A stretch of 64,000 nt of DNA, from contig JAPLYZ010000010.1 in the NCBI GenBank assembly GCA_026395295.1, positions 5,678 through 69,677 of the forward strand. The letters are read 5' to 3'. Numbering within the stretch: position 1 is the first letter of the stretch; each line of letters starts with the position of its first letter. Position numbers and translations under genes: made by a program. Below are positions 10,514-58,838 of the stretch, piece after piece. The notes under the pieces are model-generated. The model saw nothing but the letters and a program-made list of their open reading frames with translations. It did no database searches and was not told where the DNA came from. Origin of the DNA: Candidatus Staskawiczbacteria bacterium. GTDB taxonomy: Bacteria; Patescibacteriota; Minisyncoccia; Minisyncoccales; Staskawiczbacteraceae.

Positions 10514-10680
10514 ATATTTTTTGTTTAATAATTTGAAAACAATTTTTATTGTACTCTTTTAAAATAATGTTATCAAGTAAATTGCATTATAGGATTTTTT
10601 GGTGTAGTCTAATTGGTAAGACGGCTTGAGGAGTACTCTTGCCCGAACTGTAACTTGAAAATTAGACAAATGAATAAAAT

Positions 10681-12429
10681 ATGAATCCAAAAGAAAAGTG
10701 GGCGTTGTTTTCGGTCTGGGACAAAACCGGCGTTGTGGACGATGCTAAGCGACTGGTGAAATTGGGCTGGAAGATTATCAGCTCCGGTGGCACAGCAAAA
10801 GTACTGGCTTCCGCAGGTGTTCCGGTCAAGGACGTTTCCGAACTGGTGGGCGGGGGAGCCATTCTTGGCCATCGGGTGGTTACGCTCTCTCGCGAAGTCC
10901 ACGCCGCTTTGCTGGCTGACGCACTGAAGCACGAAGACCTTGTCGAGCTGGTCTGCTTGGCAATTCCCTTTATTGACCTGGTGCGCTGCGATTTTTATCC
11001 TCTGCGCCAAGCTATTGCCGACCCAAATGCAAAAGTCGCTTCGGTGGTTGAACTGACTGACATCGGCGGACCCTGCATGGTGCGTTCTGGCGCCAAAGGC
11101 TTGCGCATTGTGGTTTGCCGGAAGCAAGACATGAAGCCGGTTCTGGAAGAACTGGAGGCGTGCGGTGATGTCTGCGTTGAAAACCGCCAAAGCCTTCGCG
11201 CTCGCGCCGAGTATGAGGTTGCTAAGTACGTTGCCGAATCGGCGATGTATCACGGCCAAGGCAGATTCAGGGTCATTGCAGGAGAAAAAGTTTGCCAGTT
11301 TAAGGGCGAAAATGGTCTGCAAACTCCGGCTGCTCTTTTCAGCGCTGAATCTGACGACCCGCTGGCGCTCAAGAATTTTGCGCTCATTACTGGCACTTCG
11401 CCAAGCTACAACAACTGGTGCGACTATGATCGGCTTCTGCAGACCATGACTCATCTGGCAGCAGCCTGGAAACTGAACTATGGCAAGGTTCCCTATATTG
11501 CTGTTGGAGCCAAGCATGGCAATCCATGCGGAGCCGCGATCGGCAATAGTCATCAACTTATTGTCCATGACATGGTGATTGGTGACAGTCGCGCCATCTT
11601 CGGCGGGGTTGTTATGACCAACTTTCCTGTCACAGGCTCAGTGGCTGTGGCAATGGCCGAGGCCATGACCGACAAAAAGGCGCGCTTCGATGGCGTTGTT
11701 GCTCCAAACTTCGACGCATATGCCATTCAGACCCTTTCTCGTGTGAAGGGAAAATGCCGACTCATGGTCAACCCTGCCCTCGAAGGCGAAGGTTCTGCGG
11801 TTTTGGATACTACCCCGCGGTTCCGCTATGCTCGCGGTGGATTTTTGGCTCAGCCCAACTGCACTTTCTTACTGGACTTCAACGACCCTGACATAAAGGT
11901 TTTCGGCCCGCGCAATCCGGCAGTGGAAGCTGACCTGCTAATTGCCTGGGCAATCGGCGCCACCTCAAACTCCAACACAATTACCATTGTGAAGGACGGA
12001 ATGCTCATCGGCAACGGAGTCGGTCAGCAAGATCGCATTATCGCGGCGAGGTTAGCCAGGGACCGGGCTCTCGATGCCGGCCATGGAAACCCAGTGGACC
12101 TGGTTGCTGTTGCTACAAAGGCAATTGGGGGACTATACGCTGGAAATCTGCCAGGTGTTTCTCCCAGTTTTAAGGAGGTCGCGAAAGTCGCGGTTGAAAG
12201 CGCCCTTGCTGCAATAACCAAGGACAGGCTTGAAGGCGCGGTTGCTTACAGCGACAGTTTCTTCCCATTCCCGGATGCTGCCGAGGTTTTGATTGACGCC
12301 GGTGTTAAAGCAATATTCAGCACCTCGGGAAGCATCAACGACGCGGCAATCCAGGAGCTGTGCGTGAAGCGCGGAGTTACGCTTTACCAGCTTCCGGACA
12401 CGAAAGCCCGCGGATTTTTCGGCCACTAA
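10681..12429 (+). CDS. purH: Bifunctional AICAR formyltransferase / IMP cyclohydrolase, divergent
   Basis: 582 aa. MGS-like N-terminus (ALFSVWDKTGVV, SSGGTAKVL, DIGGPCMVRSGAK). Transformylase part (AKHGNPCGAAIG, GNGVGQQDR, YSDSFFPFPD). Visibly higher G+C than the flanks. Confidence 0.85.
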   Translation: MNPKEKWALFSVWDKTGVVDDAKRLVKLGWKIISSGGTAKVLASAGVPVKDVSELVGGGAILGHRVVTLSREVHAALLADALKHEDLVELVCLAIPFIDLVRCDFYPLRQAIADPNAKVASVVELTDIGGPCMVRSGAKGLRIVVCRKQDMKPVLEELEACGDVCVENRQSLRARAEYEVAKYVAESAMYHGQGRFRVIAGEKVCQFKGENGLQTPAALFSAESDDPLALKNFALITGTSPSYNNWCDYDRLLQTMTHLAAAWKLNYGKVPYIAVGAKHGNPCGAAIGNSHQLIVHDMVIGDSRAIFGGVVMTNFPVTGSVAVAMAEAMTDKKARFDGVVAPNFDAYAIQTLSRVKGKCRLMVNPALEGEGSAVLDTTPRFRYARGGFLAQPNCTFLLDFNDPDIKVFGPRNPAVEADLLIAWAIGATSNSNTITIVKDGMLIGNGVGQQDRIIAARLARDRALDAGHGNPVDLVAVATKAIGGLYAGNLPGVSPSFKEVAKVAVESALAAITKDRLEGAVAYSDSFFPFPDAAEVLIDAGVKAIFSTSGSINDAAIQELCVKRGVTLYQLPDTKARGFFGH

Positions 12430-12449
12430 AACCCAAAACAATTTGGGCA

Positions 12450-12483
12450 CCCCAATGCAAAAATGCAGCGGGGTTATTTTTTT
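12450..12483 (+). terminator. Terminator after purH
   Basis: CCCCAATGCA-aaaa-TGCAGCGGGG, then TTATTTTTTT. Confidence 0.65.
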
Positions 12484-12505
12484 GAAACAAACCATTTTAC
12501 ACATA

Positions 12506-12534
12506 TTGACACGTATTAAAATTTAGAATATAAT
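12506..12534 (+). promoter_or_regulatory. Sigma-70-type promoter of the marR-adaptor-MFS operon
   Basis: TTGACA, 17 nt, TATAAT. Followed by the palindrome TAGATaATCTA, a possible MarR operator. Confidence 0.65.
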
Positions 12535-12569
12535 AGATAATCTAATAATTAGGCAATCAAACTAATTTT

Positions 12570-12986
12570 ATGAATAACAATAACGAAGAAAAGCTATTAT
12601 CTGCCATATTCAATATAGGCAGATCAATTAGAGAAGAAATTCATACAAGCAACTGCCTGGTAAATTTTACGCAGGCGGAAATTGAAGTTTTAAAGTTTCT
12701 TCACAGCAGAAAAGACACAACAATGAAATCTGTGGCTGATTATTTGCATATAAAACCATCGTCAGCCACACCAATAATTGATAGCCTAGTCAAAAAAGGG
12801 GACATTAAAAGAATTCAGAAAAAGGGCGACAGAAGGGTGGTGTGCGTGGAGATAACTACAAAAGGAGCAGGAGTTTTGCAAAAAAAGTATAAAAAAATTC
12901 ACAAAACAATTAAAAAAGTTTTTGGAAAATTAAACGATAACGATAAAAAAACACTAATTAAAATTTTTGAAAAAATACATGTTTAA
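12570..12986 (+). CDS. MarR-family transcriptional regulator
   Basis: 138 aa. Winged-helix core (TQAEIEVLKFL, MKSVADYLHIKPSSATPIIDSLVKKGDIKR). Confidence 0.8.
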   Translation: MNNNNEEKLLSAIFNIGRSIREEIHTSNCLVNFTQAEIEVLKFLHSRKDTTMKSVADYLHIKPSSATPIIDSLVKKGDIKRIQKKGDRRVVCVEITTKGAGVLQKKYKKIHKTIKKVFGKLNDNDKKTLIKIFEKIHV

Positions 12987-14424
12987 AATATCAAAAAAAA
13001 TAATTGTGGGGGGAGTTGTAATAATAGCAGTTGCAATAGCTGTCATTTTGTATTTTGTTTTTACTCAAGGCGCGCCTGCAAAATTGTTATCGGTTGAGGT
13101 AAAAAATGGCGATATTACTGAAAAAATAAATTTAATTGGGCAGGTAAAAGCGTCGCAGGGAGTTGATTTGGCTTTTGAGTCTCAAGGAAAAATTGTTGCA
13201 AACTATGTGAAGGTTGGAGATAAAATAACGAAAGGGCAAGCCCTTCTGGCAATAGATGATTCTACATTGCAATCTCAGCTAAGGCAGGCGCAAGCTCAGC
13301 TTGATGTTTTAAACATAGATACCATTAAAAATAAATTAGACTCGGGCACACAAACTCTCTACTCTGGCAGCTTAAGCGGTGCTCAGAAATCTGCGACAAC
13401 AGCAAAAGACATTTTGCTGATAATTTCTGACATTCAATATAATCATTTTACAGCCCAGAACCAGCAAAATATTACTTTGCAGAGTGTGAAAGAAAAAGCA
13501 GTTTACTCTTTACTGGGTCAGCATGGCGCAGGATTGTGGAATTCTCAGGCGATTGGACAACTAAACGGCGGAGCATTTGGTTTGGTTGAAAACGCTGTTA
13601 ACAATCCTACACCAGACAATATAGACTCTGCGCTTTCGACCTTAAAGCTGTCCTTGCAGGATGTTAATAGCTTAATTGATGAAACACCAATAGACCCCGC
13701 CCTTACTTCCGTTGAGAGAACCGCTATCAGCCTGGCGAAAATAAATATAAATACAGAGATAATCACCACTTCGGCGAATATACAGGCAATTGCCGGTCTT
13801 AAAGTAAACAATTTGGCAACAATAGCAACGGCCAACGCGCAAACAGAATCTGCAAAGGCAAACATAGACGTAATAAAAACGCAGATATCAAAAACAGTAA
13901 TTAGGGCTCCGTTCAGCGGTCAGGTTGATAAAGATAACGCAGTTGTAGGTCAAATTGTTTCGGCAAACACGCCAGTAGCAACTATCTCTAACAACAATTT
14001 AGAAATAGACTTTTACATGCCGGAAATTGATTTGTCGGGCGCTAGAGCGGGGAGTAAAGCAAACGTAACATTAGATGCCTTTGGCAATCAAGTTGTTTTT
14101 CCGGCAACCATATTCTCTGTTGATTTATCTCCAACAATTGTGGGCGGATCATCTGTCTATGGAGCTAAATTGAAATTTGACGCGTCAGACAATAGAATAA
14201 ATCCCGGCATGACGGCCAATATAACAATATCTTCCGACACCCATTCAAACGTTTTAATAGTTCCCAGATCAGCTGTTGTGCAAAACAATAATAAATATTT
14301 TGTGATTGTGGAAAAAGGAAATTCGCAAAAAGAAACAAGAGAGGTTGCAGTTGGTTTGCGCGACAATAAAAATGTCGAAATTACTTTAGGATTAAAATTA
14401 GGAGAAAAAGTATTAGCATACTAA
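12967..14424 (+). CDS. HlyD-family efflux adaptor-like protein
   Basis: 485 aa. N-terminal TM, coiled-coil region, IRAPFSGQV and INPGMTANITI barrel segments. Confidence 0.7.
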   Translation: MKKYMFKISKKIIVGGVVIIAVAIAVILYFVFTQGAPAKLLSVEVKNGDITEKINLIGQVKASQGVDLAFESQGKIVANYVKVGDKITKGQALLAIDDSTLQSQLRQAQAQLDVLNIDTIKNKLDSGTQTLYSGSLSGAQKSATTAKDILLIISDIQYNHFTAQNQQNITLQSVKEKAVYSLLGQHGAGLWNSQAIGQLNGGAFGLVENAVNNPTPDNIDSALSTLKLSLQDVNSLIDETPIDPALTSVERTAISLAKININTEIITTSANIQAIAGLKVNNLATIATANAQTESAKANIDVIKTQISKTVIRAPFSGQVDKDNAVVGQIVSANTPVATISNNNLEIDFYMPEIDLSGARAGSKANVTLDAFGNQVVFPATIFSVDLSPTIVGGSSVYGAKLKFDASDNRINPGMTANITISSDTHSNVLIVPRSAVVQNNNKYFVIVEKGNSQKETREVAVGLRDNKNVEITLGLKLGEKVLAY

Positions 14425-14430
14425 AAAAAT

Positions 14431-15039
14431 ATGGGAAAAAATAAAATAATAATATTGGTCGCGGTTATTTTGGTAGTTTTAGGAAGCATAGTTGGGTTTA
14501 TATATTGGAATACAACTTCGGGCAGGGTTTACGTGGAAAACTCCGCAGTATCTGCTCCGGTAATTAATTTGTCTCCAACTGTTGGCGGAGTTCTTCAGGA
14601 AGTTTTTGTTAATGTAGGAGACCAAGTGCAAACATCAGCGCCCATCGCCAGAATTGGGAATGAATTAATAAAAGCAAAATCGTCCGGTCAAATTTTATCT
14701 ATAGATATAAATATAGGCGATAACTTTGGCGCCAATCAAACAGTTGCCACCATGATAAATCCCGATGATTTAAGAATTGTCGGCCAGGTGCAGGAAGACA
14801 AAGGCTTAAAAGATATAAAAGTAGGGCAGACTGCCATTTTTACCGTTGATGCTTTTGGTTCCAAGCAATATTCTGGAATTGTTGACCAAATAAGCCCCAC
14901 ATCAAATGCCGGAGACATTGTTTTTAACATATCCAATACCAGGCAAGAAAACGATTTTGATGTGAAAGTGCGATTTAACGTGAGCCAATTCCCGGAATTA
15001 AAAAATGGCATGTCAGCTAAACTTTGGATTTATAAATAA
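14431..15039 (+). CDS. Short HlyD/EmrA-like adaptor protein
   Basis: 202 aa. N-terminal TM and lipoyl/barrel-like segments. Lies between an adaptor gene and an MFS pump gene. Confidence 0.55.
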   Translation: MGKNKIIILVAVILVVLGSIVGFIYWNTTSGRVYVENSAVSAPVINLSPTVGGVLQEVFVNVGDQVQTSAPIARIGNELIKAKSSGQILSIDINIGDNFGANQTVATMINPDDLRIVGQVQEDKGLKDIKVGQTAIFTVDAFGSKQYSGIVDQISPTSNAGDIVFNISNTRQENDFDVKVRFNVSQFPELKNGMSAKLWIYK

Positions 15040-15051
15040 TTCAAGGAAATA

Positions 15052-16548
15052 ATGGAAGAAACACACAAAAATTTTAAATGGCTGGTGTTGCTGACGGTTA
15101 TTGTAGGAACTTTTTTAGGCAGATTAGACCAGACAATTGTTAATTTGGCTCTGCCAAAAATAATTACCGATTTTAGAATTACTGTCACTTCCGCCAGCTG
15201 GATCGCAACCGCGTATATTTTAGCTAACGCGGTTTTTGTTCCCATATGGGGAAAATTAGGAGATACCATTGGAAGAAAAAAAGTTTACATCTGGGGGTTT
15301 ACAATTTTTATTTTTGGTTCGGCTCTCGCCGGATTTTCTTGGGACTTGAGCTCTATGATTGTTTTCAGAATTATTCAGGCAATTGCCAGCTCAGCCGATT
15401 ATCCGACAGCTATGGCCATATTGGCCGTAACGTTCAGCCACGGAAAAGAAAGAGCGCAGGCTCTTGGCCTGTGGTCTGTTTCTTTTGCCGCAGCCTCGGT
15501 CTTCGGTCCGCTAATTGGAGGACCTATGATTGATATTTTCGGCTGGCGGTCTATATTTTTGCTGAACATACCAATTGGAATTATAGGAACCATTATGGCA
15601 TTTATTTTTGTGAGAGAGTCAGTTTCTGAACGCAAGACCATGCATTTTGATTGGTGGGGAGCCATTACTCTTGGAATTGCGCTTTCAGCCTTAGTTTTAG
15701 TTCTTGATCAGGGAAGCATCTGGGGCTGGTATTCTTCGGTTAGCGCAATTTGTTATGTTGTCACGATTTTATTTACTGCCATATTTATATTTATAGAATC
15801 AAAATCAGAAGATCCAATCGTTGACCTTAAATTTTTCAAGAATAGCGTTTTCGTTAACACTATTGTAAATAACTTCGTAGTTTTTATGGCGTTAATGGGG
15901 GCGGTGTTTTTAATTCCCATTTTCGTTGAAACTTACTTAGGGTACGATGCCACAAAAACCGGCTACATATTTATTCCCATGGCATTTTTTATGGTGATAT
16001 CCTCGGCAATTGGAGGAAACCTGACCGGAAAAATCCAGCCAAAATACATTATATTTGCCAGCACTTTCATAGCCGCCGTTGGAGTATATATGTTTTCATA
16101 TTTAGATCCAAGGTCAGGAATTCTGGATGTAATTATTCCTCTTTCAATTATGGCTTTTGGTTTAGGTTTTGGAATGTCTCAACGTACCAATGTTATCACG
16201 GTGGTGGTTCCGGTTGAGGAAATGGGAATTGCTTCTTCAGTGCTGGCGCTGGGAAGAAACATAGCCGGAGCGTTTGGAATTGCAATTTTTGGAACAATTT
16301 TAACAGACGCAACTAAGACCAATGTTTTAAATACCGCTTACCATAGCATTATAAAAATTACCGACCCGGCAGTTTATCAACAGGCAGTTGAACTTATAAT
16401 TTTAAAGGCGCAAATAGATGCCTACAAGCCGGTTTTTATCACAGCCTCTATTGTATTGCTTGTCGGAGCGTTCTTGGCGTTATTTATAGACGTTTCAAAA
16501 GAAAGAATGCAACACGGCCATAAAGCAGAAGATTTTGTTGAAGTTTAA
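15052..16548 (+). CDS. MFS transporter, 14-TMS DHA2 (EmrB/QacA-like) drug:H+ antiporter
   Basis: 498 aa. N-terminal motif LDQTIVNLALP, GKLGDTIGRKK loop, many TM helices. Confidence 0.85.
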   Translation: MEETHKNFKWLVLLTVIVGTFLGRLDQTIVNLALPKIITDFRITVTSASWIATAYILANAVFVPIWGKLGDTIGRKKVYIWGFTIFIFGSALAGFSWDLSSMIVFRIIQAIASSADYPTAMAILAVTFSHGKERAQALGLWSVSFAAASVFGPLIGGPMIDIFGWRSIFLLNIPIGIIGTIMAFIFVRESVSERKTMHFDWWGAITLGIALSALVLVLDQGSIWGWYSSVSAICYVVTILFTAIFIFIESKSEDPIVDLKFFKNSVFVNTIVNNFVVFMALMGAVFLIPIFVETYLGYDATKTGYIFIPMAFFMVISSAIGGNLTGKIQPKYIIFASTFIAAVGVYMFSYLDPRSGILDVIIPLSIMAFGLGFGMSQRTNVITVVVPVEEMGIASSVLALGRNIAGAFGIAIFGTILTDATKTNVLNTAYHSIIKITDPAVYQQAVELIILKAQIDAYKPVFITASIVLLVGAFLALFIDVSKERMQHGHKAEDFVEV

Positions 16549-24725: not shown

Positions 24726-25220
24726 CTATTTGGTTTTTGAGAAGGCCTTTGCCATTTCTAACCATTTTGGCGCTCGGGGGCGGTTTTTATATTTTGCTGA
24801 AGACTTGTGAATTTCTATTAAAGTGCACAGGTCATTTTTTTTCCAACTGGCTAAAGACTTTCCCTTATTTCTTTGGATTACCTCAACTCCTTTTGCCCAA
24901 AGTTCAAAATCTTTTTTCTTTTTGTCAGCCAGCAAATTTTTTCTGAAAAACGGCACAACCACTTCGGCAATATCGCTAATTTTTTGCACAGAGAATCTTG
25001 CCTGATCTTTGGAAACGGTAATTTCTCCGCAATCCATTTCGTTTTTTATTTTTTCCAAAATTTTAAAATCGTTTTTGGGCGAGGTAACCACAAACTGAGC
25101 TTTCCAACGGTAGTAAGTGGGGGAGTTGGTTCTTTCGTGCCGGGTGTCTTTTCTAAATTGCAAATCAAAGCAACCATCGGAATTTACTAGGTTTACTATA
25201 TTAAATTTTTCTGTTACCAT
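24726..25220 (-). CDS. Free-standing LAGLIDADG-type homing endonuclease-like protein
   Basis: 164 aa. One LAGLIDADG-like motif (NLVNSDGCF) and family-like core (ILEKIKNEMDCGEI, VVPFFRKNLLADKKKKDFELW). Confidence 0.55.
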   Translation of the reverse strand: MVTEKFNIVNLVNSDGCFDLQFRKDTRHERTNSPTYYRWKAQFVVTSPKNDFKILEKIKNEMDCGEITVSKDQARFSVQKISDIAEVVVPFFRKNLLADKKKKDFELWAKGVEVIQRNKGKSLASWKKNDLCTLIEIHKSSAKYKNRPRAPKWLEMAKAFSKTK

Positions 25221-26601: not shown

Positions 26602-26616
26602 CCGTAAGGAGTTTTT

Positions 26617-26627
26617 ATTGTGCGACA
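26617..26627 (+). repeat. ATTGTGCGACA 11-mer, copy 4
   Basis: Exact copy in the 31-nt spacer between the convergent helicase and xer genes. Followed by GACAAG-N9-CTTGTC. Confidence 0.95.
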
Positions 26628-26632
26628 AGGTA

Positions 26633-27604
26633 TTATTTCTTGTCAGGATCAGAGTGGAATTGATGGTGAATGTCGCGAAGGCGTTTATTGGTTACGTGCG
26701 TGTAGATTTGAGTGGTGGCAATGTTGCTGTGGCCCAAAAACTCTTGGATGCTTCGCAGATCAACTCCCTGGTTTAACAAATCTGTGGCGTAACTGTGGCG
26801 CAGGGTATGAGGTGTTGTAAAAATTGGCACGCCTGAAAGCAGGGCGTATTTTTTTACCGTGCGCTCAATAGACCTTGGGGTAAGCCTGGCATTGGTATCG
26901 TCTTTTTTGTCGCGAAAGTTTATAAACAAGGCTTTTTGATTTGCATGTTTAATATCGTTTCTTATTTCTAAATATTTTTTGATGAAGTTTAATGCGCGTT
27001 CGGAAAAATAAACTACTCGCGGTTTTCCGCCTTTTCCAATTACGCCAAGTTCCATGTCCTTTTTATCTTTTAGATTACTAAATTGTTCAAGGTTCAACGA
27101 GGTGAGCTCAGCAATTCTAAACCCGGTTGAGAAAAAAACCTCTAAAATAGCCCTGTCGCGAGTGCTTATGTCGTCCTTGGGCTCAATGGAGGCTAAAAGC
27201 TTGCTAATTTGGTCTAAAGTAAGGAATTTAATGCTTTTTGAGCCTCTATCTGGCTTTGAGAGCGATATTTTGTCCGGGGGGATACTTTGTATGTCTTTTG
27301 CCACAAAATAGCCTAAAAAGGCCCTTAAAGCGATCAAATAGTAGTTTTGGGTGGCCTTAGATAGCAATTTTCCTGTAGCCAGACTGGGCTGTCTTGAAAG
27401 GTATAATCTATAGTCCCAAATATGCTCGGAGGTCAACTGATGGGGGAGTAAAGACGATAATTTAGCTTGGTCTAACCAATAGAAAAATTTCTGCAGATAA
27501 TTTTTATAATTCTCCTGAGTATTTTTTCTTAAACCTTTTTCAACTTCACAAAAGTCTAAAAAATCTTGCAGATGGTTTTTAATTGGTTTAGTTGAGTTTT
27601 GCAT
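26633..27604 (-). CDS. Tyrosine recombinase, XerC/XerD-like
   Basis: 323 aa. SAM-like N-domain. Catalytic region RDRAILEVFFSTGFRIAEL, HTLRHSYATDLL, LGHSNIATTQIYTHV. Confidence 0.85.
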   Translation of the reverse strand: MQNSTKPIKNHLQDFLDFCEVEKGLRKNTQENYKNYLQKFFYWLDQAKLSSLLPHQLTSEHIWDYRLYLSRQPSLATGKLLSKATQNYYLIALRAFLGYFVAKDIQSIPPDKISLSKPDRGSKSIKFLTLDQISKLLASIEPKDDISTRDRAILEVFFSTGFRIAELTSLNLEQFSNLKDKKDMELGVIGKGGKPRVVYFSERALNFIKKYLEIRNDIKHANQKALFINFRDKKDDTNARLTPRSIERTVKKYALLSGVPIFTTPHTLRHSYATDLLNQGVDLRSIQEFLGHSNIATTQIYTHVTNKRLRDIHHQFHSDPDKK

Positions 27605-27626
27605 TTTCTCCGGATTTTTAGAAGCC

Positions 27627-27674: not shown

Positions 27675-27677
27675 CTA

Positions 27678-27707: not shown

Positions 27708-27717
27708 CGGGTAGTAC

Positions 27718-30773: not shown

Positions 30774-30802
30774 TTGACATTGTCTATTTTGGGTATTAAG
30801 AT
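30774..30802 (+). promoter_or_regulatory. Sigma-70-type promoter of the pilin-like insert
   Basis: TTGACA, 17 nt, TAAGAT. Confidence 0.55.
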
Positions 30803-30874
30803 GTGGATAGCACATTTAACAATCCCGAAAGGGACAACTGCCAATCGCAGTTGAATATGGAAAGAAGTAAGTAT

Positions 30875-31300
30875 ATGAAGAAAAACAGATATGGTTTCAC
30901 ATTGATTGAGTTGTTGGTTCTCATCTCGGTCATCGCAATTGTAGCGGGCTTGCTTATTCCTTCCCTTGATCGCATAGTCGAACGGAATTACGGGAGGATA
31001 ATTCACGAACCGGATATAAATCAGATTTATCTGGTTATGGCGGTCGACAAGACCGTTAACGAGGTCATTGCCATGCCGTGGAGATTTGCCAATGACGGCG
31101 ACAAGGCAACAGACCGCCGGCTCCTCCTCAAGGTAAACGACGAGGTTTGCAAGGTTGGCACTTGGTTTATTCGAGAACCGAATAACAATATTAAAATTCT
31201 GCACATGCCCGACGTTCCGCCATTCGTCACGATGGTGACCACTGAAACGGTTACGAAAACAAATGTGACCGAGATACTCACCATCGAAGCCAACAAATAG
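30875..31300 (+). CDS. Type IV pilin-like protein (prepilin-type N-terminal cleavage/methylation domain)
   Basis: MKKNRYG/FTLIELLVLISVIAIVAGLL is a class III signal with Gly-1, Phe+1, Glu+5. Higher G+C. Confidence 0.6.
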   Translation: MKKNRYGFTLIELLVLISVIAIVAGLLIPSLDRIVERNYGRIIHEPDINQIYLVMAVDKTVNEVIAMPWRFANDGDKATDRRLLLKVNDEVCKVGTWFIREPNNNIKILHMPDVPPFVTMVTTETVTKTNVTEILTIEANK

Positions 31301-31448
31301 ACCGCACGTTCCGCAAGCAGGGGCAATTGAAAAATTGCTCTCTTTTTTTTAAGCGTCGGAATCCAACTGCCTTGCCGACGGGAAACATTGCAGAAAATCA
31401 AACTATGTGGTATTTTTAATTTAGCAACTTAACAATTTAAATCCTGAA

Positions 31449-31895
31449 ATGAAAGGACATATGATTACTCAAAAAGTAAGCAACTGGATTGGTTTTTGCA
31501 TTCTGACTGTCTGCGGTTTAGTTTTGGGTCTGTGTTTCGGCACAATTGGAGTGGGAGCCATGCCTTCTAATCCAATGGACGGCATTGGCATGAGCTACGG
31601 CGCGATGTTCGCGGTTGTATGCCTTTTCGCAAAGACACAGGGGCAGAAGAAATCTCACACAAGTTTGGTGTTGATTGTTGCTTCTGCCATCAGTTTTATT
31701 GCCTGCATGGATGCGGGGTTAATTATAAGCCTTATGCATTCATGGGAATTAGACCTGGCAAGCAGTTTGACCGCCGGTTTGCAACTCGACTTATGGATCT
31801 CCATTGGCGTTGGCTCGATGATATTGGCGTGGCTGTTAGTTCGGGCGAGTTTAAAGCATTTGTGCAGGACCTTTCAGGACCATTTTTTCAGGTAA
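31449..31895 (+). CDS. Hypothetical 4-TM membrane protein
   Basis: 148 aa, hydrophobic, higher G+C. Co-oriented with the pilin-like gene. Confidence 0.4.
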   Translation: MKGHMITQKVSNWIGFCILTVCGLVLGLCFGTIGVGAMPSNPMDGIGMSYGAMFAVVCLFAKTQGQKKSHTSLVLIVASAISFIACMDAGLIISLMHSWELDLASSLTAGLQLDLWISIGVGSMILAWLLVRASLKHLCRTFQDHFFR

Positions 31896-35692: not shown

Positions 35693-36043
35693 CTATGAAA
35701 CGGAGCCTGAAGAAAACCATAGCCAATAGGTAATGAGACCTGCGATGCCAATCGCCATAACTCCCAGGGCGATAAGGACTTTATCCTGTCTTTTGGACAG
35801 ACCCCAGTCGCTGGATATTGTCTTGGCCGGAATTCCTAAAAAAAGCAAAATTGCAATCTGCGCGATAATTTTGGCGACGCCCGCAAAGCCGAGAAATCGC
35901 GTAACGCCCGCGACGATTATAAAAACTGCTGCGCCGAGAAGCAACCGCATTACGACTTTCTCGTCACTGCCTTTGCTTATGCTCCTCCTTGCGGAAGAAG
36001 CAGAAGAAATGGACATGGTATTCATAAAATAATTTATTATCAA
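35693..36043 (-). CDS. Hypothetical membrane protein
   Basis: 116 aa, 3 TM helices, moderately elevated G+C. Confidence 0.35.
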   Translation of the reverse strand: MIINYFMNTMSISSASSARRSISKGSDEKVVMRLLLGAAVFIIVAGVTRFLGFAGVAKIIAQIAILLFLGIPAKTISSDWGLSKRQDKVLIALGVMAIGIAGLITYWLWFSSGSVS

Positions 36044-36098: not shown

Positions 36099-36127
36099 TT
36101 GACGCTAAGATTGTTACATGCTATTAT
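36099..36127 (+). promoter_or_regulatory. Sigma-70-type promoter of the WG-repeat gene
   Basis: TTGACG, 17 nt, TATTAT. Confidence 0.5.
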
Positions 36128-36160
36128 TTTAACAGCTCCTTAATTCAATAAAAAAAGCCT

Positions 36161-36517
36161 ATGGAAGCAAAATCGACAAGCGAATTGTTCAATATCTACG
36201 ATGGCATCGGGCGTTTTTCCGAAGGCCTTACAGTGGCGCAAAAAGGCAATATGCGGATTTTCATTTATCCGGATGGAACACCCGCATTCGAGGCAGTGTT
36301 TAGTGAAGCCCTGCCTTTCTCGGAAGGATTAGCCGCGGTTAAGACGGGCGAGGAGTGGGTTTACATTGGACATAACGGCAAGCCCGCTTTCGAGGGAAGA
36401 TATGCTAAAGCCAATAGCTTTAGCTGTGGAACGGCCCAGGTCAAAGACGGCAAATGGTTTACCATCATTGACCATTACGGCAAAAGGGTGGAAAACTTTC
36501 CGCCACAACCTCTGTAA
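36161..36517 (+). CDS. WG-repeat (KWG-like) containing protein
   Basis: 118 aa with repeated F/Y-x-EGLA-x-V-K/Q-x-G-x-W units. Elevated G+C. Own TTGACG-17-TATTAT promoter. Confidence 0.5.
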   Translation: MEAKSTSELFNIYDGIGRFSEGLTVAQKGNMRIFIYPDGTPAFEAVFSEALPFSEGLAAVKTGEEWVYIGHNGKPAFEGRYAKANSFSCGTAQVKDGKWFTIIDHYGKRVENFPPQPL

Positions 36518-36549
36518 AAGAGGTTCTTTTTTTAAAATTTTATTTTTAA

Positions 36550-44067: not shown

Positions 44068-44136
44068 AATTTTATCTTTAATTATATTGGCTTATATCAA
44101 TTTTATATTACCAAAATTTTGCTAAATCGTCTAATG

Positions 44137-44208
44137 TGGACCTGGGGGGAGTTGAACCCCCAACCTTTCGCATGCCATGCGACTGCGCCGCCATTGCGCC
44201 ACAGGCCC
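44137..44208 (-). tRNA. tRNA-Ala (anticodon GGC)
   Basis: Hand-folded. Acceptor GGGCCTG/CAGGTCC with the G3:U70 alanine identity pair, anticodon loop ATGGCAT, T arm GGGGG-TTCAACT-CCCCC. 72 nt. Confidence 0.85.
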
Positions 44209-53571: not shown

Positions 53572-53679
53572 GCGAGGAAAATAATTTTTAGCGTATTACA
53601 GGACGCGAAGCGCCTGTCGAAGCGAGTTTCCCCGCCTTGGCGGGGACACGAGCGTTAGCAGAAAATTATTTTCCGAGCG
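53572..53679 (+). repeat. MITE-like structured repeat, copy B
   Basis: About 108 bp, between the HlyD gene start and the PD-(D/E)XK gene stop. Near-identical core CCTGTCGAAGCGAGTTTCCC...ACACGAGCGTTAGCAGAAAAT. Confidence 0.85.
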
Positions 53680-53681
53680 AT

Positions 53682-54371
53682 TTAATTAAATTTTTTAGCT
53701 CCATCTAACCATTTTTTAAATAAGCAATCTTGGCTGTGCTCAGGCGGAGTCGGCTCTCTTAAACATTTGACTGCATCCTGAAAAATTGCGTAAATGTCTG
53801 ACGGGTTGGTTTCTATCTCCACTATTTCTTTGCGAAACGGCAGGCGGTCAATGAATCCCCTGCTCTTGTCTACGATATAAAAAGCCAAATAGCCTTTCCG
53901 CGGAGTTTTATAACCGTTCTTCTCCATTAAAAATGTGTAAGTGTCTAACTGCAACTGGAATCTGTCATAAACATTTGCCGCGGTGCTTCCTGTTGATTTA
54001 TAGTCTAACGGAGCAATTTTAGAATCGCTGAATTCCAAAACATCATCAACCGCGCCAAATAACGTTGCTTGAAGAACCTCGTCAAAATATCTGATGCCGG
54101 CAAGATTGTTTCTCCATTGGTTCAACAACTTCTGATTTGGAAAAAGTCGCGCCTTTATGCCATTTTCTTTCAGCAACGGATGCGGTAAATTCTTCGCCCG
54201 GTAAGTGTCAAACTCTTCTTTTAGCAAACTGTCCACCGCCGAGTTCAAAGCATAAGGGTATGGCGGAGGCCTTTTTATTCCCAAATTCTTATCCAGCCAA
54301 AAGCAATGCGGACATTCCAAAAACAAATTCAGAGAGTTGGGTGATAATTGTATTGGTTTTTCGTTAGCCAT
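53682..54371 (-). CDS. PD-(D/E)XK nuclease superfamily protein (Cas4/RecB-like)
   Basis: 229 aa. N-terminal CPHCFW cysteine pair, D...DYK core (APLDYKS), C-terminal Cys. Confidence 0.55.
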   Translation of the reverse strand: MANEKPIQLSPNSLNLFLECPHCFWLDKNLGIKRPPPYPYALNSAVDSLLKEEFDTYRAKNLPHPLLKENGIKARLFPNQKLLNQWRNNLAGIRYFDEVLQATLFGAVDDVLEFSDSKIAPLDYKSTGSTAANVYDRFQLQLDTYTFLMEKNGYKTPRKGYLAFYIVDKSRGFIDRLPFRKEIVEIETNPSDIYAIFQDAVKCLREPTPPEHSQDCLFKKWLDGAKKFN

Positions 54372-54396
54372 ATTCTATTATATCAAATTTTTAGAA

Positions 54397-54429
54397 TAAA
54401 AAAAGTCCCGACAGTTCACACTGTGGGAC
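54397..54429 (-). terminator. Terminator after purC-purE
   Basis: On the minus strand: GTCCCACAG-tgtgaa-CTGTCGGGAC, then TTTTTTT. Confidence 0.75.
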
Positions 54430-54452
54430 ATTTAAATATCCAAGGCAGCAGG

Positions 54453-55793
54453 CTAGCTGAGCGGAATCACATTGACCGCGCGCTCTTCCTGTTTCAGTCG
54501 CAACACGGCATATAGCGCAGGATTCCTGCCGGCAAGGATTTTCAGCGCGGCCAAAACAGCGAGCTTTGGATCAGCAACAACCATCAGAGGAACTTCGCTG
54601 GGCATGCGTAACGACGAGCTTGCATCCGCCGGATCAGGAATAGTGCTTATCACCGGCACCATGCTGTTCGCCGCACACGTTGGTCCCAAACCATTACTCC
54701 TGCCAACGTTTGTCACGATGACCGGGTCAGGCAGAGGCTTGGAATCACTCAAGCCTTTGCAACCAAACTCCAAATCCTGCAGCGTTAACAACGACTGCAT
54801 CGGCTTCTTGTGCGCAGAATTGACCAAGAAAGCTATTTGTACGCCATGCCGCCCCTGGGCGAAAGCCGAAAAAGCAGTCGCAAAAACTTCTGTATTGTCA
54901 TTGGGCGAACCGCTCCAAATAACCAGCGTTTGGTTGGGAATCCGAAAAAATCCGGTGAGAACCGCCGTCCGGCGAAGGATTTGTTCCATAACGGTAAGCC
55001 CTTCGTTCTCGCGATAAGCTTGCTTGGACAACTTCTGCCCGTCCTTCATCACACGCCACGAATCGGCATCAATGACATCACCGATGTATAGCTTGCCGTC
55101 AAGCCAGCCAAACTCAATCTTCCAGTCCAACAGATCGTAGCCAAGGATTTTCCACGCTTTCTCCACGACCAAAAATGCGTGAACGTTCATCGTGGCCATG
55201 CCCGCCATGACTTCCTTCCCGTTACCTCGCGGAAAAATCTCGGTGAGCAGGATCTTCAAAAACGGCTCTTGCGTCGCCAACGGAATGTGCGCGTTATAGA
55301 GCCATACCTCGCCGCCCACGACTTTCATATACGGGTCGTCGTAAGACTCACCGGGCTTGCTTCCCGGGAACTTGTGGCCGTTGAACCCGCAACCGTGAGT
55401 CTTCAGGTAAAATTCCGTCACAATGCTCGGAAATACCGTGCCGTTGGGAACGTGTGGGTTCCGTTGAAGGTAGGAGCCAGTCGCGACACGGCGCGCTACA
55501 ACTTCCAGTGGAAGCATTTCCAAACTCGGCGCCAAAAATTCTTTGGGACCGAGCTGTCTCGCGAATGCGACTGGCAAGCCGCATTGCTTGAGCAACGAGA
55601 AAACGTTGCAGGTAGTTGTGGTGGACAGCGCGGCTTTACCCTTGATAACATCGTGCTTTTCTCCATCGCCGGCCGTGATGTCATCCTTAGATTCTACGGC
55701 AACCATGTTCGGCGATTCAAGAACCTGCCAAATTATCTTGGTTTTGCCCTCTCCGAGCTGACTGCCCTTAGTGACTGTGTCTGATGTTGTCAT
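54453..55793 (-). CDS. purC-purE: Bifunctional SAICAR synthetase (N-terminal, PurC) / class II AIR carboxylase (C-terminal, PurE), PAICS-type fusion
   Basis: 446 aa. N-terminal LGEGKTKIIWQV, SKDDITAGDG, VARRVATGSYLQRNP, DADSWRV. C-terminal GSPND, NSAHKKP, GRSNGLGPTCAANSMVPVIS. High G+C. Confidence 0.8.
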   Translation of the reverse strand: MTTSDTVTKGSQLGEGKTKIIWQVLESPNMVAVESKDDITAGDGEKHDVIKGKAALSTTTTCNVFSLLKQCGLPVAFARQLGPKEFLAPSLEMLPLEVVARRVATGSYLQRNPHVPNGTVFPSIVTEFYLKTHGCGFNGHKFPGSKPGESYDDPYMKVVGGEVWLYNAHIPLATQEPFLKILLTEIFPRGNGKEVMAGMATMNVHAFLVVEKAWKILGYDLLDWKIEFGWLDGKLYIGDVIDADSWRVMKDGQKLSKQAYRENEGLTVMEQILRRTAVLTGFFRIPNQTLVIWSGSPNDNTEVFATAFSAFAQGRHGVQIAFLVNSAHKKPMQSLLTLQDLEFGCKGLSDSKPLPDPVIVTNVGRSNGLGPTCAANSMVPVISTIPDPADASSSLRMPSEVPLMVVADPKLAVLAALKILAGRNPALYAVLRLKQEERAVNVIPLS

Positions 55794-55915
55794 ACTGATT
55801 ATTACCTTCTTAATCGGCTCTACTGAGCCTTGTTTTCAACGAGCGTATCGCGATGCCTTGAAAAGGCACCTGATTATACAAGACTACAAAAATTTGCAAT
55901 TTCTGTCAACTTACT

Positions 55916-55926
55916 TGTCGCACAAT
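55916..55926 (-). repeat. ATTGTGCGACA 11-mer, copy 8
   Basis: Exact copy on the minus strand between the purB terminator and the purC-purE promoter region (TTGACA at 55909-55904). Confidence 0.95.
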
Positions 55927-55971
55927 AAAATACTCCTACCCTCCGACGCGTAGGAGCAAGGTATCGAGCAA

Positions 55972-56002
55972 TAAAAAAGTCTTGCCGGTAAAACCAGCAA
56001 GA
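55972..56002 (-). terminator. Terminator after purB
   Basis: On the minus strand: GTCTTGCTGG-ttttac-CGGCAAGAC, then TTTTTT. Confidence 0.75.
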
Positions 56003-56020
56003 CCTGCGTGCCAAAAGCAA

Positions 56021-57526
56021 CTACACTTTCGGAGGCGCTTCTCGAAAAAGAAGGACATGGTCGAAGAGAAAATCTTCGTTCCGAAGGCGATCCTCAACCG
56101 AGAAAACTCCTCGCCATTCGTTATCTTTTATCCCGGGGATGGCGAACAATTTCCTCAAGGCTCCATTCCATTTATCAACTTCCTCCTGCGTAGCATCAAG
56201 CTCCGGAACAACCGACAAGCTTGCGTTTGCAATAATTGCATCAATGGAACAGCGAATTGCGCTGTCTCCGAAAACACGCTCAATAAGCTCACGAGCTTCT
56301 TTTAAGGTTGCCGGTGGTTCCTTTCTGGCGTCCATTGCTGTCTTTGACGGATGGAACGCGTTGAACGAAGCAAGTTGCACAATGCGATAGGTCTCTTCCG
56401 CGCTAATGCCGTACGCAACCAAACGCGGTCTCAAAAAATTTTTCGCAGTGGCAGCCGCCCATGTTCCTTTGGTGTCCAGAATATCTTGAATCATGTTGTC
56501 TGGATAAACACGCAGACCCCCAATAACTTTTACGCAGACGGTTAGAGACCGCATTACCACATGGAAAAGATCTGGCCAAGCAACCCGCTCAACGCTGGAC
56601 TGTTCAATCGCCCTTTCTTCCCATGTACTGATATTCTGCATAATCATCGTCAAATATCCCAAAGCCATTCTTTCCATTCCCTCCAATTGCTCGCAGGAAA
56701 TGGTGTTCTTCTTGTGTGGCATCGCAGAGGAACCCTTCTGACTTTTACCGAAAGGCTCTTGGTAAATGGGACGCGGAGACCTTGCACCCAAACGGATGTC
56801 TACCCCAATCTTGGAAATAGCCACGACCAATGTTGCCAAAGCCGATGCCAATGGCACGTGGATCTGCCGGGGCAGAATCTGTGTTGCCCCAAAAAATGGC
56901 TTGAACCCCAGAAGAGCCAAAGCTTTCTCTTCTATTTCCGGAGTAATTTCGCCGTAGTTTCCCACGGCTCCGGAAAGCTTGGACATGTTTAGCCTCGCTG
57001 CTTCGTCCCTAACTCTGTTGCGGGCGAGAAAAATCTCCCTGTGCCACGTTAGACACCTCTTGCCGAATGTTTGGACTTCCGCGTGCTGACCGTGAGTAAT
57101 TGCCATCATCGGACAACGCCGGTATTTCAGGGCCAGCGTTGACAAAGCTTCCAGCAATTGCGTGCATTCTCCAACAACAATGTTTGCTGAATATTTGAGA
57201 AGCATAAGAAAGGCTGTTTCTTCCGTGTCGTAGGATGTCATTCCATCGTGGAAATGCCCCTGAAGTTCCGACGGCAAGAGTCTCACCCTTTCTTCAACCC
57301 ATGCCTGCAAATCATGGCCGATCTTTTCTTCCCGCTCTTTCCACCATTCTAAATAAACCTGAGTTGACCCCAGTATTCTGTTCACCTCCATAAAAACTGT
57401 TGGAGGAATAATGCCAAGCAGAGACCGCGCTTCAACCACAGCCAACTCCACTTTCTGCCAGGCATCAAGTTTTGTCCTGTCTTCCCAGATTTGAGCGATT
57501 ACTTTACTTCTATATCTTTCTATCAT
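56021..57526 (-). CDS. purB: Adenylosuccinate lyase
   Basis: 501 aa. Fumarate-lyase signature GSSAMPHKKNT. MTSYDTEETA, HGQHAEVQTFGKR. High G+C. Confidence 0.9.
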   Translation of the reverse strand: MIERYRSKVIAQIWEDRTKLDAWQKVELAVVEARSLLGIIPPTVFMEVNRILGSTQVYLEWWKEREEKIGHDLQAWVEERVRLLPSELQGHFHDGMTSYDTEETAFLMLLKYSANIVVGECTQLLEALSTLALKYRRCPMMAITHGQHAEVQTFGKRCLTWHREIFLARNRVRDEAARLNMSKLSGAVGNYGEITPEIEEKALALLGFKPFFGATQILPRQIHVPLASALATLVVAISKIGVDIRLGARSPRPIYQEPFGKSQKGSSAMPHKKNTISCEQLEGMERMALGYLTMIMQNISTWEERAIEQSSVERVAWPDLFHVVMRSLTVCVKVIGGLRVYPDNMIQDILDTKGTWAAATAKNFLRPRLVAYGISAEETYRIVQLASFNAFHPSKTAMDARKEPPATLKEARELIERVFGDSAIRCSIDAIIANASLSVVPELDATQEEVDKWNGALRKLFAIPGIKDNEWRGVFSVEDRLRNEDFLFDHVLLFREAPPKV

Positions 57527-57621
57527 ATTACAAGTGTCCTTCCATATTGTTAAATGTTGACAAAGTGCCGAAAACCCAAACTCGGGTTTGTAAGGTTATA
57601 TTACTAATTTTAAAAGTCTGG

Positions 57622-58419
57622 TCAAGTTTCTATACTAATCCAGCGCCATTTATTATACTGATCTTTATGAAATTCGTAATTTGAGTATCTATATTTTTTT
57701 ATTAACCCCTCTATCTTTTTTTTCTGCGGAGGAACCTGTGGTGAGCCCGTCGAACCATCAAATTCCATAAAAATTATGCCGTTAAGATTTAAATGATTTC
57801 TTGCATTTTTCAAAAACTTTCTAATATAAAAAAGCCCATCGCTGCCTCCGAATAAGGCTAGTTTAGGCTCAAAATTTAAAACCGAAACTTGAAGCTTGTT
57901 TCTATTTTTTTTTGGAATATATGGCGGGTTGGCAAAAATAAAGTCATACTTGCCCTCAACATTGCTAAAAATGTTTGACCGGATTATTTTGTATCTGGCG
58001 GGTTTTATTTTGTTTAAACTGCAATTTATTTTAATTTGCTCTATTGCCTTGTGGTTTTTTTCCGCAAAAAATACTTTCGCCTGCATGCCGGCAGGCAGGC
58101 GTTTTCTAAAATCTCTCAATATTGCTAAACCAATGCACCCCGAGCCGGCAAAAATGTCTAAAACAGAAAATCCGTGTTTTTTGCGGTCGCAAAAAACACG
58201 GCCTATTTCTTCAATTGCTTTTTCTACCCAAAATTCTGTTTCCTTCCGCGGAATCAAAGGCTTTTTGGACAAATCAATTTTGCAATTCAAAAACTCAATA
58301 AATCCAATTACATAATCTAAAGGCTCGCCGGCTTTCAACCTCTCTATATCCTTATAAAAATTTTTATTGGGCTTGCCAAAATATTTTTCTTTGAGAAGCC
58401 AGTTGATTTCTTTATCCAT
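57622..58419 (-). CDS. prmC: Release-factor glutamine N5-methyltransferase
   Basis: 265 aa. SAM motif [11 protein letters not shown] and FANPPYI (NPPY). Confidence 0.85.
58172..58201. repeat. Palindromic unit with core TTTTTTGCGGTCGCAAAA, copy 2 (inside prmC)
   Basis: Perfect 14-bp arms CCGTGTTTTTTGCG-gt-CGCAAAAAACACGG. Translated as [11 protein letters not shown]. Confidence 0.85.
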
Positions 58420-58456
58420 ATTATATATCTTTTTACTCTATCAAAATTTTATCAAT

Positions 58457-58486
58457 AAAAAAAGTTCTGCGACAAAGTCGAAGAAC
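58457..58486 (-). terminator. Terminator after the small G+C-rich ORF
   Basis: On the minus strand: GTTCTTCGA-ctttg-TCGCAGAAC (one mismatch), then TTTTTTT. Confidence 0.55.
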
Positions 58487-58492
58487 ATGGAG

Positions 58493-58762
58493 TCACGGAA
58501 GAAGCGGAGCCGTCCTGAAAATCCTGGGATTGCTAAGATATACAAAGGCGAAAGGAAGCGTCTTTAATTGCGGATTGATTGCGCGAACAATATGGCCCGC
58601 CAGGATGACGCCGGTCATGTCGCCGTCGGGCGCAGCCTCCTTCTCGTCCAGTTGCACCTCCAGACCAACCCCGTTTTCTTCCGGAGCTTCCAGAAGCAAG
58701 GCTTTTGCAACTTCATCAGCCGAAAGTCCGTCGCACGGTACTACTTTTCCGTTAACATTCAT
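58493..58762 (-). CDS. Small G+C-rich orphan ORF
   Basis: 89 aa. Preceded by TTGACA-16-TATAAT, followed by a hairpin plus T-run. No Shine-Dalgarno and no motif, so coding status is uncertain. Confidence 0.3.
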   Translation of the reverse strand: MNVNGKVVPCDGLSADEVAKALLLEAPEENGVGLEVQLDEKEAAPDGDMTGVILAGHIVRAINPQLKTLPFAFVYLSNPRIFRTAPLLP

Positions 58763-58810
58763 AATTTAAAGGAGCTTAGTGTTCTAGAATAATCATTGTG
58801 ATTGCTTATT

Positions 58811-58838
58811 ATTATACTCCCTAAAAAGATAATGTCAA
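58811..58838 (-). promoter_or_regulatory. Sigma-70-type promoter of the small G+C-rich ORF
   Basis: On the minus strand: TTGACA (58838-58833), 16 nt, TATAAT (58816-58811). Confidence 0.55.

Follow-up and report, generated by a model that had tools for sequence, protein, structure and literature searches.

The DNA analyzed here is a 64,000-nucleotide stretch (the window) from a genome of Candidatus Staskawiczbacteria, a lineage of the Candidate Phyla Radiation (CPR, or Patescibacteria). It contains seven patches of G+C-richer DNA, which include genes for the purine enzymes PurH, PurB and a PurC-PurE fusion. These patches are probably horizontally acquired accessory islets of foreign-type composition, located in a conserved, syntenic Staskawiczbacteria backbone, and some of them appear to be old acquisitions that were inherited vertically thereafter. 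Horizontally derived islets in a CPR genome are a known kind of feature. More notable are the late-purine content of these islets, the persistence of their composition, and a slot that nucleotide genes occupy recurrently.

G+C-rich islets in an AT-rich backbone

PurH and the PurC-PurE fusion have 100% identical counterparts in a metagenome-assembled genome at NCBI that is named Candidatus Staskawiczbacteria. The backbone of the window has housekeeping genes (xseA, dnaK, dnaJ, grpE, murG, ftsW, a MurL-MurD fusion, uppS, pyrG, gltX and clp) as well as several MacAB-type efflux operons. The mean G+C content (GC) is 0.40 for the window and 0.34 for its intergenic DNA. A first-pass annotation, made from the letters alone, had described seven G+C-richer patches, and all of them (numbered P1-P7 here) are found at the positions it gave. 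The contrast it estimated by eye, about half G+C against one third, is too large, as the measured values are 0.43-0.53 for the patches and 0.386 for the rest. It had correctly labeled the genes at 54453-55793 (-) and 56021-57526 (-) as the PurC-PurE fusion and purB. The patches and the backbone elements next to them are given below, where GC3 is the G+C content at third codon positions, ORF an open reading frame, CDS a coding sequence, and the 11-mer the motif ATTGTGCGACA.

P1, 10681..12429 (+): purH, bifunctional AICAR transformylase/IMP cyclohydrolase, 582 amino acids (aa), long CPR-type form; GC 0.546, GC3 0.576
12448..12483 (+): terminator-like hairpin with T-run, 3′ of purH
12506-12534: 12/12 consensus promoter of the next backbone gene (MarR), following the purH terminator
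P2a, 30774..31341 (+): promoter-like site (30774-30802), type IV pilin-like ORF (30803-31300) and terminator (31320-31341); GC3 0.584
P2b, 31449..31895 (+): 148-aa predicted membrane ORF without a family match; GC 0.461, GC3 0.537
P3a, 35693..36043 (-): 116-aa predicted membrane ORF, strand uncertain as gene callers disagree; GC 0.46, GC3 0.50
P3b, 36099..36525 (+): promoter (36099-36127), WG-repeat ORF of 118 aa (36161-36517) and terminator (36507-36525); GC 0.487, GC3 0.52
P4, 37483..38228 (-): 11-mer (38218-38228), perfect sigma-70-like promoter (38210-38181), 209-aa orphan ORF (38164-37535) and terminator (37507-37483); GC 0.533, GC3 0.586
P5, 44267..45029 (-): PlsC-like acyltransferase (248 aa) with terminator (44288-44267); GC 0.446 (weak), GC3 0.498
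P6a, 54398..55926 (-): 11-mer (55916-55926), promoter, conserved leader of about 100 nucleotides, PurC-PurE fusion CDS (55793-54453, 446 aa) and terminator (54429-54398); GC 0.531, GC3 0.622
P6b, 55977..57625 (-): promoter (57625-57598), leader hairpin, purB (57526-56021, 501 aa, short bacterial type) and strong terminator with a 13-bp stem (56005-55977); GC 0.485, GC3 0.50
P7, 58457..58838 (-): perfect promoter (58838-58811), 89-aa orphan ORF (58762-58493) and terminator-like hairpin (58486-58457); GC 0.53, GC3 0.53
53682..54371 (-): solo Cas4-like PD-(D/E)XK nuclease, backbone flank and downstream border of a variable slot, 80-87% identical in relatives; GC 0.41
57622..58419 (-): PrmC methyltransferase, backbone flank and upstream border of the variable slot in all relatives; GC 0.348

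The GC of each patch was tested against backbone windows of the same length. The values for P1 (0.532, z = 7.4), P6 (0.499, z = 6.9) and P4 (0.499, z = 3.8) are reached by no backbone window. P3 (0.452, z = 2.3), P2 (0.444, z = 2.3) and P7 (0.467, z = 2.1) are in the top 0.2%, 0.4% and 0.5% of these windows, respectively, and P5 (0.431, z = 1.5) is in the top 5%. P1, P4 and P6 thus deviate unambiguously and P2, P3 and P7 to a moderate degree; P5 deviates only weakly in raw GC but is an outlier in GC3. The GC3 of the patch genes is 0.50-0.62, in every case at least about 3 robust standard deviations over the median (0.38, with a standard deviation of 0.039 from the median absolute deviation). 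No comparable GC3 outlier was found among the genes of the window beyond these patches.

The patches also differ from the backbone in their sequence signature. The GC-normalized dinucleotide signatures of purH, the fusion, purB and the pilin patch lie above those of all 300 backbone samples of the same length, and that of the 209-aa orphan is above the 95th percentile; P3, P5 and P7 are too short for this signature to discriminate. The three pur genes are as close to one another as backbone pieces are to the backbone, and this common signature fits one compositional pool. Codon choice in the pur genes differs in kind from that in the backbone, with CGN in place of AGA, CTG/CTC in place of TTA, and AAG in place of AAA. 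From the backbone to the pur genes, the share of AGA among Arg codons changes from 0.46 to 0.12, that of TTA among Leu codons from 0.33 to 0.04, and that of AAA among Lys codons from 0.78 to 0.43. A foreign-type composition and codon usage of the patches is supported by these observations.

The enrichment is limited to the coding sequences and ends at their borders. The adjoining non-coding pieces have GC of 0.13-0.43, and the promoters, leaders and terminators beside the patches are of native composition. The native genes for DnaK, DnaJ, L21 and PyrG are at backbone GC3, and for this reason an expression-linked codon bias was rejected. The composition of PyrG likewise led us to reject, for this genome, the idea that nucleotide genes are GC-rich as such.

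The source of the window is a metagenome-assembled genome and its composition shifts abruptly at gene borders, both of which might point to assembly or binning chimeras, or to contaminant reads joined into a low-GC contig. The junctions, for which the first-pass annotation had asked for read support, were examined in the Logan per-run assemblies of more than 20 sequencing runs, from the ERR153021xx and SRR2069865x series. Contigs from these assemblies are 100% identical to the window over 8462-16429, 31535-38771 and 53653-58200; they cover both junctions of P1, P3, P4 and P6 and extend into the second gene of P2. There are 14 independent per-run contigs of this kind across both junctions of the four patches, for which a chimera is ruled out. 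Moreover, the layout of GC-rich genes in AT-rich DNA is seen again in relatives that other studies provided, among them one with a 738-kb contig. An artefact is thus a very improbable explanation of the patches.

The transcription signals reported earlier are present. Four sigma-70 promoters are at the exact coordinates given, two with 12 of 12 consensus positions (38210-38181 and 58838-58811, both -) and two with 10 of 12 (30774-30802 and 36099-36127, both +). Terminators had been reported for most patches, and a terminator-like hairpin with a T-run is found 3′ of genes in all seven. The transcriptional autonomy that was deduced from these signals holds in the sense that each patch has its own promoter and terminator. 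Equally good signals are found in backbone genes, however (for example the 12/12 promoter at 12506-12534), and autonomy is therefore not special to the patches.

Long antisense ORFs had been described as almost exclusive to the patches. They are enriched there, with four of the five frames of at least 160 aa (p = 0.0015), but exclusivity fails for those of at least 100 aa (11 of 33). One of the four in-patch frames (30800-31297, +) is the pilin gene itself, flagged through an over-extended ORF on the other strand. This mechanical 529-aa ORF (29615-31204, -) is MurG with an over-extended GTG start, its Pfam domains being found from residue 160 on, and MurG and the pilin-like gene do not truly overlap. 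The N-terminal methylation motif of the pilin-like ORF is at residues 26-51, so its true start is probably internal. In P4, the minus-strand ORF is favored over the antisense frame at 37425-38015 because of its GC1 > GC2 pattern and its signals.

Turnover at recurrent slots in relatives

Relatives were obtained by scanning species-representative genomes with the neighboring MacA-like protein, which gave about 15 related Patescibacteria loci; contigs bearing fusion homologs were added to these. The relatives are labeled L007, L009 and so on. The conserved backbone order is RmuC, L21, PrmC, slot, Cas4-like nuclease, MacA, ABC, MacB, MacB, and further on a VirD4-like gene. The contents of the slot between PrmC and the nuclease, and of a second slot between L21 and PrmC, are as follows.

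PrmC/nuclease slot, L011: empty, with a 17-bp gap
PrmC/nuclease slot, L007: fusion only
PrmC/nuclease slot, L009 and the window: purB and fusion
PrmC/nuclease slot, L013: N-terminal fragment of PurH and a 510-aa fusion
PrmC/nuclease slot, L015: GuaA (GMP synthase) and a PurH fragment
PrmC/nuclease slot, L021: PurC alone, GC 0.62, GC3 0.82
PrmC/nuclease slot, L024: fusion allele about 44-51% identical to the other three (49% to that of L009)
L21/PrmC slot (position of P7), window: 89-aa orphan
L21/PrmC slot, L009 and L013: GC-rich ATCase/OTCase-like genes
L21/PrmC slot, L007: empty
L21/PrmC slot, L015: several genes of backbone GC and an OMP-decarboxylase-like gene (GC3 0.52)

The comparison of syntenic loci proposed in the first-pass annotation thus finds empty sites (L011 and L007) and other contents (L013, L015, L021 and L024) at the P6 and P7 positions. 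Since the same slots are empty in some relatives and filled differently in others, their genes have been gained, lost and replaced repeatedly, and for P6 and P7 this turnover at recurrent slots is demonstrated. The backbones of L009 and L024 are 87-91% identical and their fusion alleles are only 49% identical, as judged from pairwise identities only. Between the window and L009, the purB alleles share only 53% identity.

The contents of the PrmC/nuclease slot are always GC-rich relative to their own backbone. In comparison, insertions elsewhere in the backbones of the relatives (in the MacAB operon, and those with RhuM-like and four-helix-bundle proteins) have normal GC. The MacAB-operon insertions, together with the blocks 3351-10513 and 12570-16548 of the window, which are also at normal GC, exclude the idea that all insertions are GC-rich, and a GC-rich source pool separate from the ordinary mobile DNA of the lineage is indicated.

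The nuclease at the border of the slot is a solo gene without CRISPR context. It is 80-87% identical among the relatives where the neighboring genes are 55-65% identical, and it is always found directly downstream of the slot.

In relatives, the synteny of the P5 locus extends no further than the VirD4-like gene, beyond which L007 carries another GC-rich ORF. In the window, P5 lies between this VirD4-like gene and tRNA-Ala(GGC) (44136-44208), with the tRNA 75 bp from the acyltransferase. No integrase adjoins P5 that would mark it as a tRNA-linked island, and no search aimed at a repeat of the tRNA end was made.

For purH (P1), the relative with the 738-kb contig (L044, JBAZUH010000001.1) keeps the order cyt-b5, purH, LiaF-like, GrpE, DnaK, with a purH that is 60% identical and has a GC3 of 0.49 against a backbone of about 0.2. 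In L045, purH is found in another context, within a four-gene GC-rich island. The purH of a Moranbacteria genome with 45% GC is compositionally native. The two blocks of normal GC mentioned above flank purH in the window and are absent from the syntenic region of L044. They carry efflux systems, alanine dehydrogenase, MarR and an MFS transporter, and large insertions or deletions of native composition likewise shape this region.

Other small-genome contigs also have multi-gene GC-rich islands around pur genes (L045, 7959-11605; L069, 4725-9347). Examples of such GC-rich genes are ParB_N-like ORFs adjoining purH, with GC3 of 0.59-0.79, and the lone PurC of L021 (8214-9140, GC3 0.82).

Age of the islets and persistence of their composition

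The fusion clade (69-82% identity) is present in at least seven lineages. In six of these, the fusion gene adjoins the gene of the Cas4-like nuclease (in the seventh, the contig stops before this position), and PrmC was found upstream in five. Pairwise identities among lineages are 0.73-0.84 for the fusion and 0.80-0.87 for the nuclease. Identity at four-fold degenerate sites ranges over 0.43-0.49 in the fusion and 0.28-0.50 in backbone genes, with 0.27 expected at saturation. The promoter and leader of the fusion gene are also homologous across lineages. The shared slot, the backbone-like divergence and the homologous promoter and leader suggest that the age of the fusion cassette roughly matches that of the split between these genomes. 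A recent arrival of the fusion and purH is not supported.

The reading that we favor has the islets enter the lineage by horizontal transfer from GC-richer genomes, probably at different times. In each islet, one or two coding sequences are combined with AT-rich promoters, leaders and terminators of native type. As for the sources, the PurH is of a Patescibacteria-wide type and the nearest outgroups of the fusion lie in high-GC bacteria. Synteny and comparable divergence suggest that the fusion in its slot and purH near the cyt-b5, GrpE and DnaK genes are old acquisitions then inherited vertically, and other acquisitions would be lineage-specific. The PrmC/nuclease and L21/PrmC slots are hot spots, at which contents are seen to be lost, replaced and exchanged among relatives. 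The exchange most likely proceeds by DNA uptake and homologous recombination through the conserved flanking genes. The GC excess that is left would most simply be unfinished amelioration from a GC3 of about 0.8-0.95 at the start, a point that is contested (see below).

The first-pass annotation had proposed repeated acquisition of small cassettes, possibly from one higher-GC donor pool. The patchy slots and the foreign-type composition agree with repeated acquisition, but composition is no mark of recency. The dinucleotide signature common to purH, the fusion and purB agrees with one pool, but no donor was found. For the fusion and purH, the genes are syntenic and compositionally similar in some relatives, where the proposal fails, and it holds in others. 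Taken strictly, with all patches as recent and independent promoter-gene-terminator insertions from one GC-rich pool and with composition as a measure of recency, the proposal is improbable. It would account for the demonstrated hot spot with contents that differ among close relatives, for the common signature, and for the promoter and terminator at every patch. It is difficult to reconcile with fusion alleles that are 16-27% diverged in protein sequence and near four-fold saturation in the same slot behind a homologous promoter and leader, or with a purH that is syntenic with that of L044 at 60% identity. The flanks are AT-rich and carry a native, family-conserved 11-mer, consensus promoters and terminators are found in backbone genes too, and there is no close donor among the homologs found.

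Several observations weigh against the favored reading as well. No fusion donor closer than 48% identity was found. The next-best homologs are at most 48% identical; some of them are named Xanthobacteraceae or Pseudolabrys, and one is on a uniformly GC-rich contig (L042, GC 0.58, GC3 0.71). No GC-rich 'home' genome was seen, as all examined contigs of the fusion clade have an AT-rich backbone. The slots have no integrase, transposase, att-like repeat or viral carrier. For P2-P5, composition is the sole indication of acquisition, and P5 is only a weak outlier. The fusion has a GC3 of 0.57-0.63 in seven lineages whose backbone GC3 ranges over 0.19-0.38. The slope of fusion GC3 on backbone GC3 is 0.05 ± 0.15, where about 0.5 is expected under neutral amelioration (p ~0.03, n = 7, with a crude model). 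Finally, the non-coding flanks are fully at background GC and the four-fold sites are not.

These compositional observations would be explained if the high G+C of the coding sequences were actively held, whatever their origin, by selection on synonymous sites (for mRNA level or stability, for example) or by GC-biased gene conversion at slots prone to recombination. The time of arrival could then not be read from composition. The fusion of L007 has a G+C content at four-fold sites (GC4) of 0.58 against about 0.18 in its backbone, despite turnover of about half of these sites, and it is in keeping with such a force that the enrichment ends exactly at the CDS borders and that these backbones contain other insertions without a raised GC. 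The GC3 values of PurC, the fusion, PurB and PurH are usually 0.1-0.25 over those of their neighbors in many unrelated contigs from AT-rich small genomes, and in GC-moderate genomes this difference centers on zero; the pattern would fit repeated acquisition by reduced genomes from ordinary bacteria as well as a gene-specific force. On the other hand, a donor GC3 of 0.8-0.95 followed by neutral decay fits the three-taxon data about equally well. The three-taxon redraw model with an ancestral GC4 of 0.8-0.95 roughly yields the observed 0.58-0.63, and the notion that amelioration is impossible was rejected on this basis. Such an ancestral GC4 is plausible; the nearest outgroups include the GC-rich contig L042 and the proteins named Xanthobacteraceae or Pseudolabrys. 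The regression relies on seven points and a crude model. Moreover, the highly expressed DnaK and L21, as well as PyrG, have no GC3 elevation, which argues against a general translational selection for GC-ending codons, and the recombination arms (PrmC and the nuclease) have no GC elevation, which is not expected for simple biased gene conversion. Active maintenance is overall a rather unlikely explanation, but the present data cannot separate it from slow amelioration.

An extension of this idea is that the coding sequences for nucleotide biosynthesis in Staskawiczbacteria, and apparently in many AT-rich ultra-small genomes, have a gene-specific G+C set-point (GC3 of about 0.5-0.6), whatever the degree of AT-richness that the genome reaches, and cycle through a dedicated recombination slot beside the conserved solo Cas4-like nuclease. 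Their high G+C would be selected or mechanistically maintained and would not be a fading footprint of transfer. This proposal is doubtful. If it were true that the composition is maintained and does not decay, GC would have to be reconsidered as an indicator of recent transfer in streamlined genomes. The orthologous GC-rich genes in sister genomes with backbone GC3 of 0.19-0.38 offer a clean natural test of the amelioration model.

Other vehicles for the islets were considered. No repeats were found flanking the PrmC/nuclease slot. The sole recombinase in the window is Xer-like (26633-27604), distant from every patch. Carriage by phage was rejected, as IMG/VR has no close relatives of the fusion or PurH and the orphans have no PHROG matches. 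The orphans have no match in PADLOC either, and membership in a defense system was rejected with only the flanking nuclease resembling Cas4. An integron cassette array, which likewise gathers small single-gene units at one site, was rejected because there is no IntI integrase beside the slot and there are no attC/attI repeats. Integron cassettes are usually promoterless, whereas the units here each have their own promoter and terminator.

Islets of atypical G+C acquired by horizontal transfer, and the model of their amelioration, are reportedly due to Lawrence and Ochman. The islets here share with these the deviant GC, GC3, codon usage and dinucleotide signature, the patchy presence with an empty site, and an allele divergence that, from pairwise identities, appears in part incongruent with that of the backbone. 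They differ in that their composition outlasts a backbone-like divergence, does not track the GC of the recipient, and is limited to the coding sequences, and they have no mobility genes or repeats. Oliveira, Touchon, Cury and Rocha are said to have described, in 2017, transfer hot spots between core genes, most of them without integrases. The PrmC/nuclease slot is similar in having different accessory genes in each genome. Its contents are distinct in being almost all for nucleotide biosynthesis and uniformly GC-rich, in genomes of less than 1 Mb.

Purine enzymes and other features of the window

CPR bacteria usually have no late purine capacity, and the prevailing view is that CPR/Patescibacteria obtain nucleotides from their hosts. 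PurE, PurC, PurB and PurH are all present and intact within the window, and no purine steps upstream of aminoimidazole ribonucleotide (AIR) were seen there. As read from the protein-family assignments, P1 and P6 would jointly encode a late de novo purine module, from AIR to inosine monophosphate (IMP), and this lineage would hold the module as small islets that are predicted to be transcribed individually. Different nucleotide genes (PurC, GuaA, ATCase-like and OMP-decarboxylase-like) are found at the same slots in relatives, and nucleotide autonomy has therefore apparently been gained, lost and swapped gene by gene.

PurH has the Pfam domains MGS and AICARFT_IMPCHas and aligns over its full length to ATIC structures in the PDB. 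The fusion has PF01259 at residues 13-133 and beyond and PF00731 at residues 291-437 in one polypeptide. Its best PDB matches are human and insect PAICS (2h31 and 4ja0, E = 3e-48). Animal PAICS has the same domain order, PurC then PurE, but it is only distant kin, and bacterial fusion homologs are numerous (1478 matches). The fusion is a member of this large bacterial family, and transfer from a eukaryote was rejected. A SAHK motif is located at residue 326; we take SAHK to mark class II PurE and SAHR to mark class I. The PurE domain is accordingly predicted to be of the class II type, which would carboxylate AIR directly and not need PurK. PurH, the fusion and PurB all score under the NCBIfam equivalog cut-offs and are thus divergent forms of these enzymes.

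The PurH homologs range from 69% down to 48% identity, and the named ones are nearly all from Patescibacteria. This fits the reports in PMC12455944 of transfer into Patescibacteria mostly from other Patescibacteria. That study describes genomic islands in groundwater Patescibacteria with transfers mostly between Patescibacteria, nucleotide-metabolism genes included. The likeness to the case here is in the CPR recipients, the within-Patescibacteria transfers and the gains in nucleotide metabolism. Single-gene GC-rich islets, a recurrent slot and late-purine modules are not described in the passages of PMC12455944 consulted.

The leader of the fusion gene (55794-55915, -), between the -10 box and the ribosome-binding site, is conserved in L007, L009 and L047-L050. 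It contains a GTTCRTTG box, preceded by a hairpin in which some of the changes are compensatory. In the purB leader (57527-57597), a hairpin occurs together with CTTTGTCAAC. A search for riboswitches upstream of the pur genes gave no Rfam match at gathering score or E <= 1, save for one chance-level match to ylbH. The conserved leader is possibly a purine-responsive cis-regulatory element.

The first-pass annotation had noted that the 11-mer immediately precedes two patches. Both copies are there (38218-38228 and 55916-55926, both -), but six further exact copies are at or within backbone genes. With six of the eight copies away from the patches and the motif conserved across the family in related genomes, a role as a cassette boundary signal was rejected. 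The window has eight exact copies of ATTGTGCGACA and 10 with at most one mismatch, where 1.05 are expected. The exact copies start at 18979, 21427, 25272 and 26617 on the plus strand and at 28348, 38218, 51291 and 55916 on the minus strand. They are on the plus strand to the left of about 27 kb and on the minus strand to its right, directed toward the switch in GC skew. Six copies are intergenic, several of them just 5′ of a -35 box or start codon, and two are within ORFs. The motif may act as a regulator site, as an uptake sequence or as a polar element of the KOPS kind.

The cumulative GC skew has its maximum near 27 kb, and gene orientations converge there. The Xer-like tyrosine recombinase mentioned above (minus strand) is located at this switch, and the region of 26000-28500 looks like a replication terminus. 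An 864-aa fusion at 33054-35648 (-) joins MurL (UDP-MurNAc-L-Ala-L-Glu epimerase) to MurD, which implies an L-Glu route to the peptidoglycan stem peptide.

An exhaustive HMMER search with the 89-aa orphan of P7 gave weak, repeat-like matches only. The 209-aa orphan of P4 has a single homolog (46% identity) among 5.8 billion proteins. A free-standing LAGLIDADG homing endonuclease adjoins tRNA-Lys in the window (24726-25220, -). On a 2-kb contig that is unrelated (L127), a copy of it with 82% identity is found beside this only known homolog of the P4 orphan.

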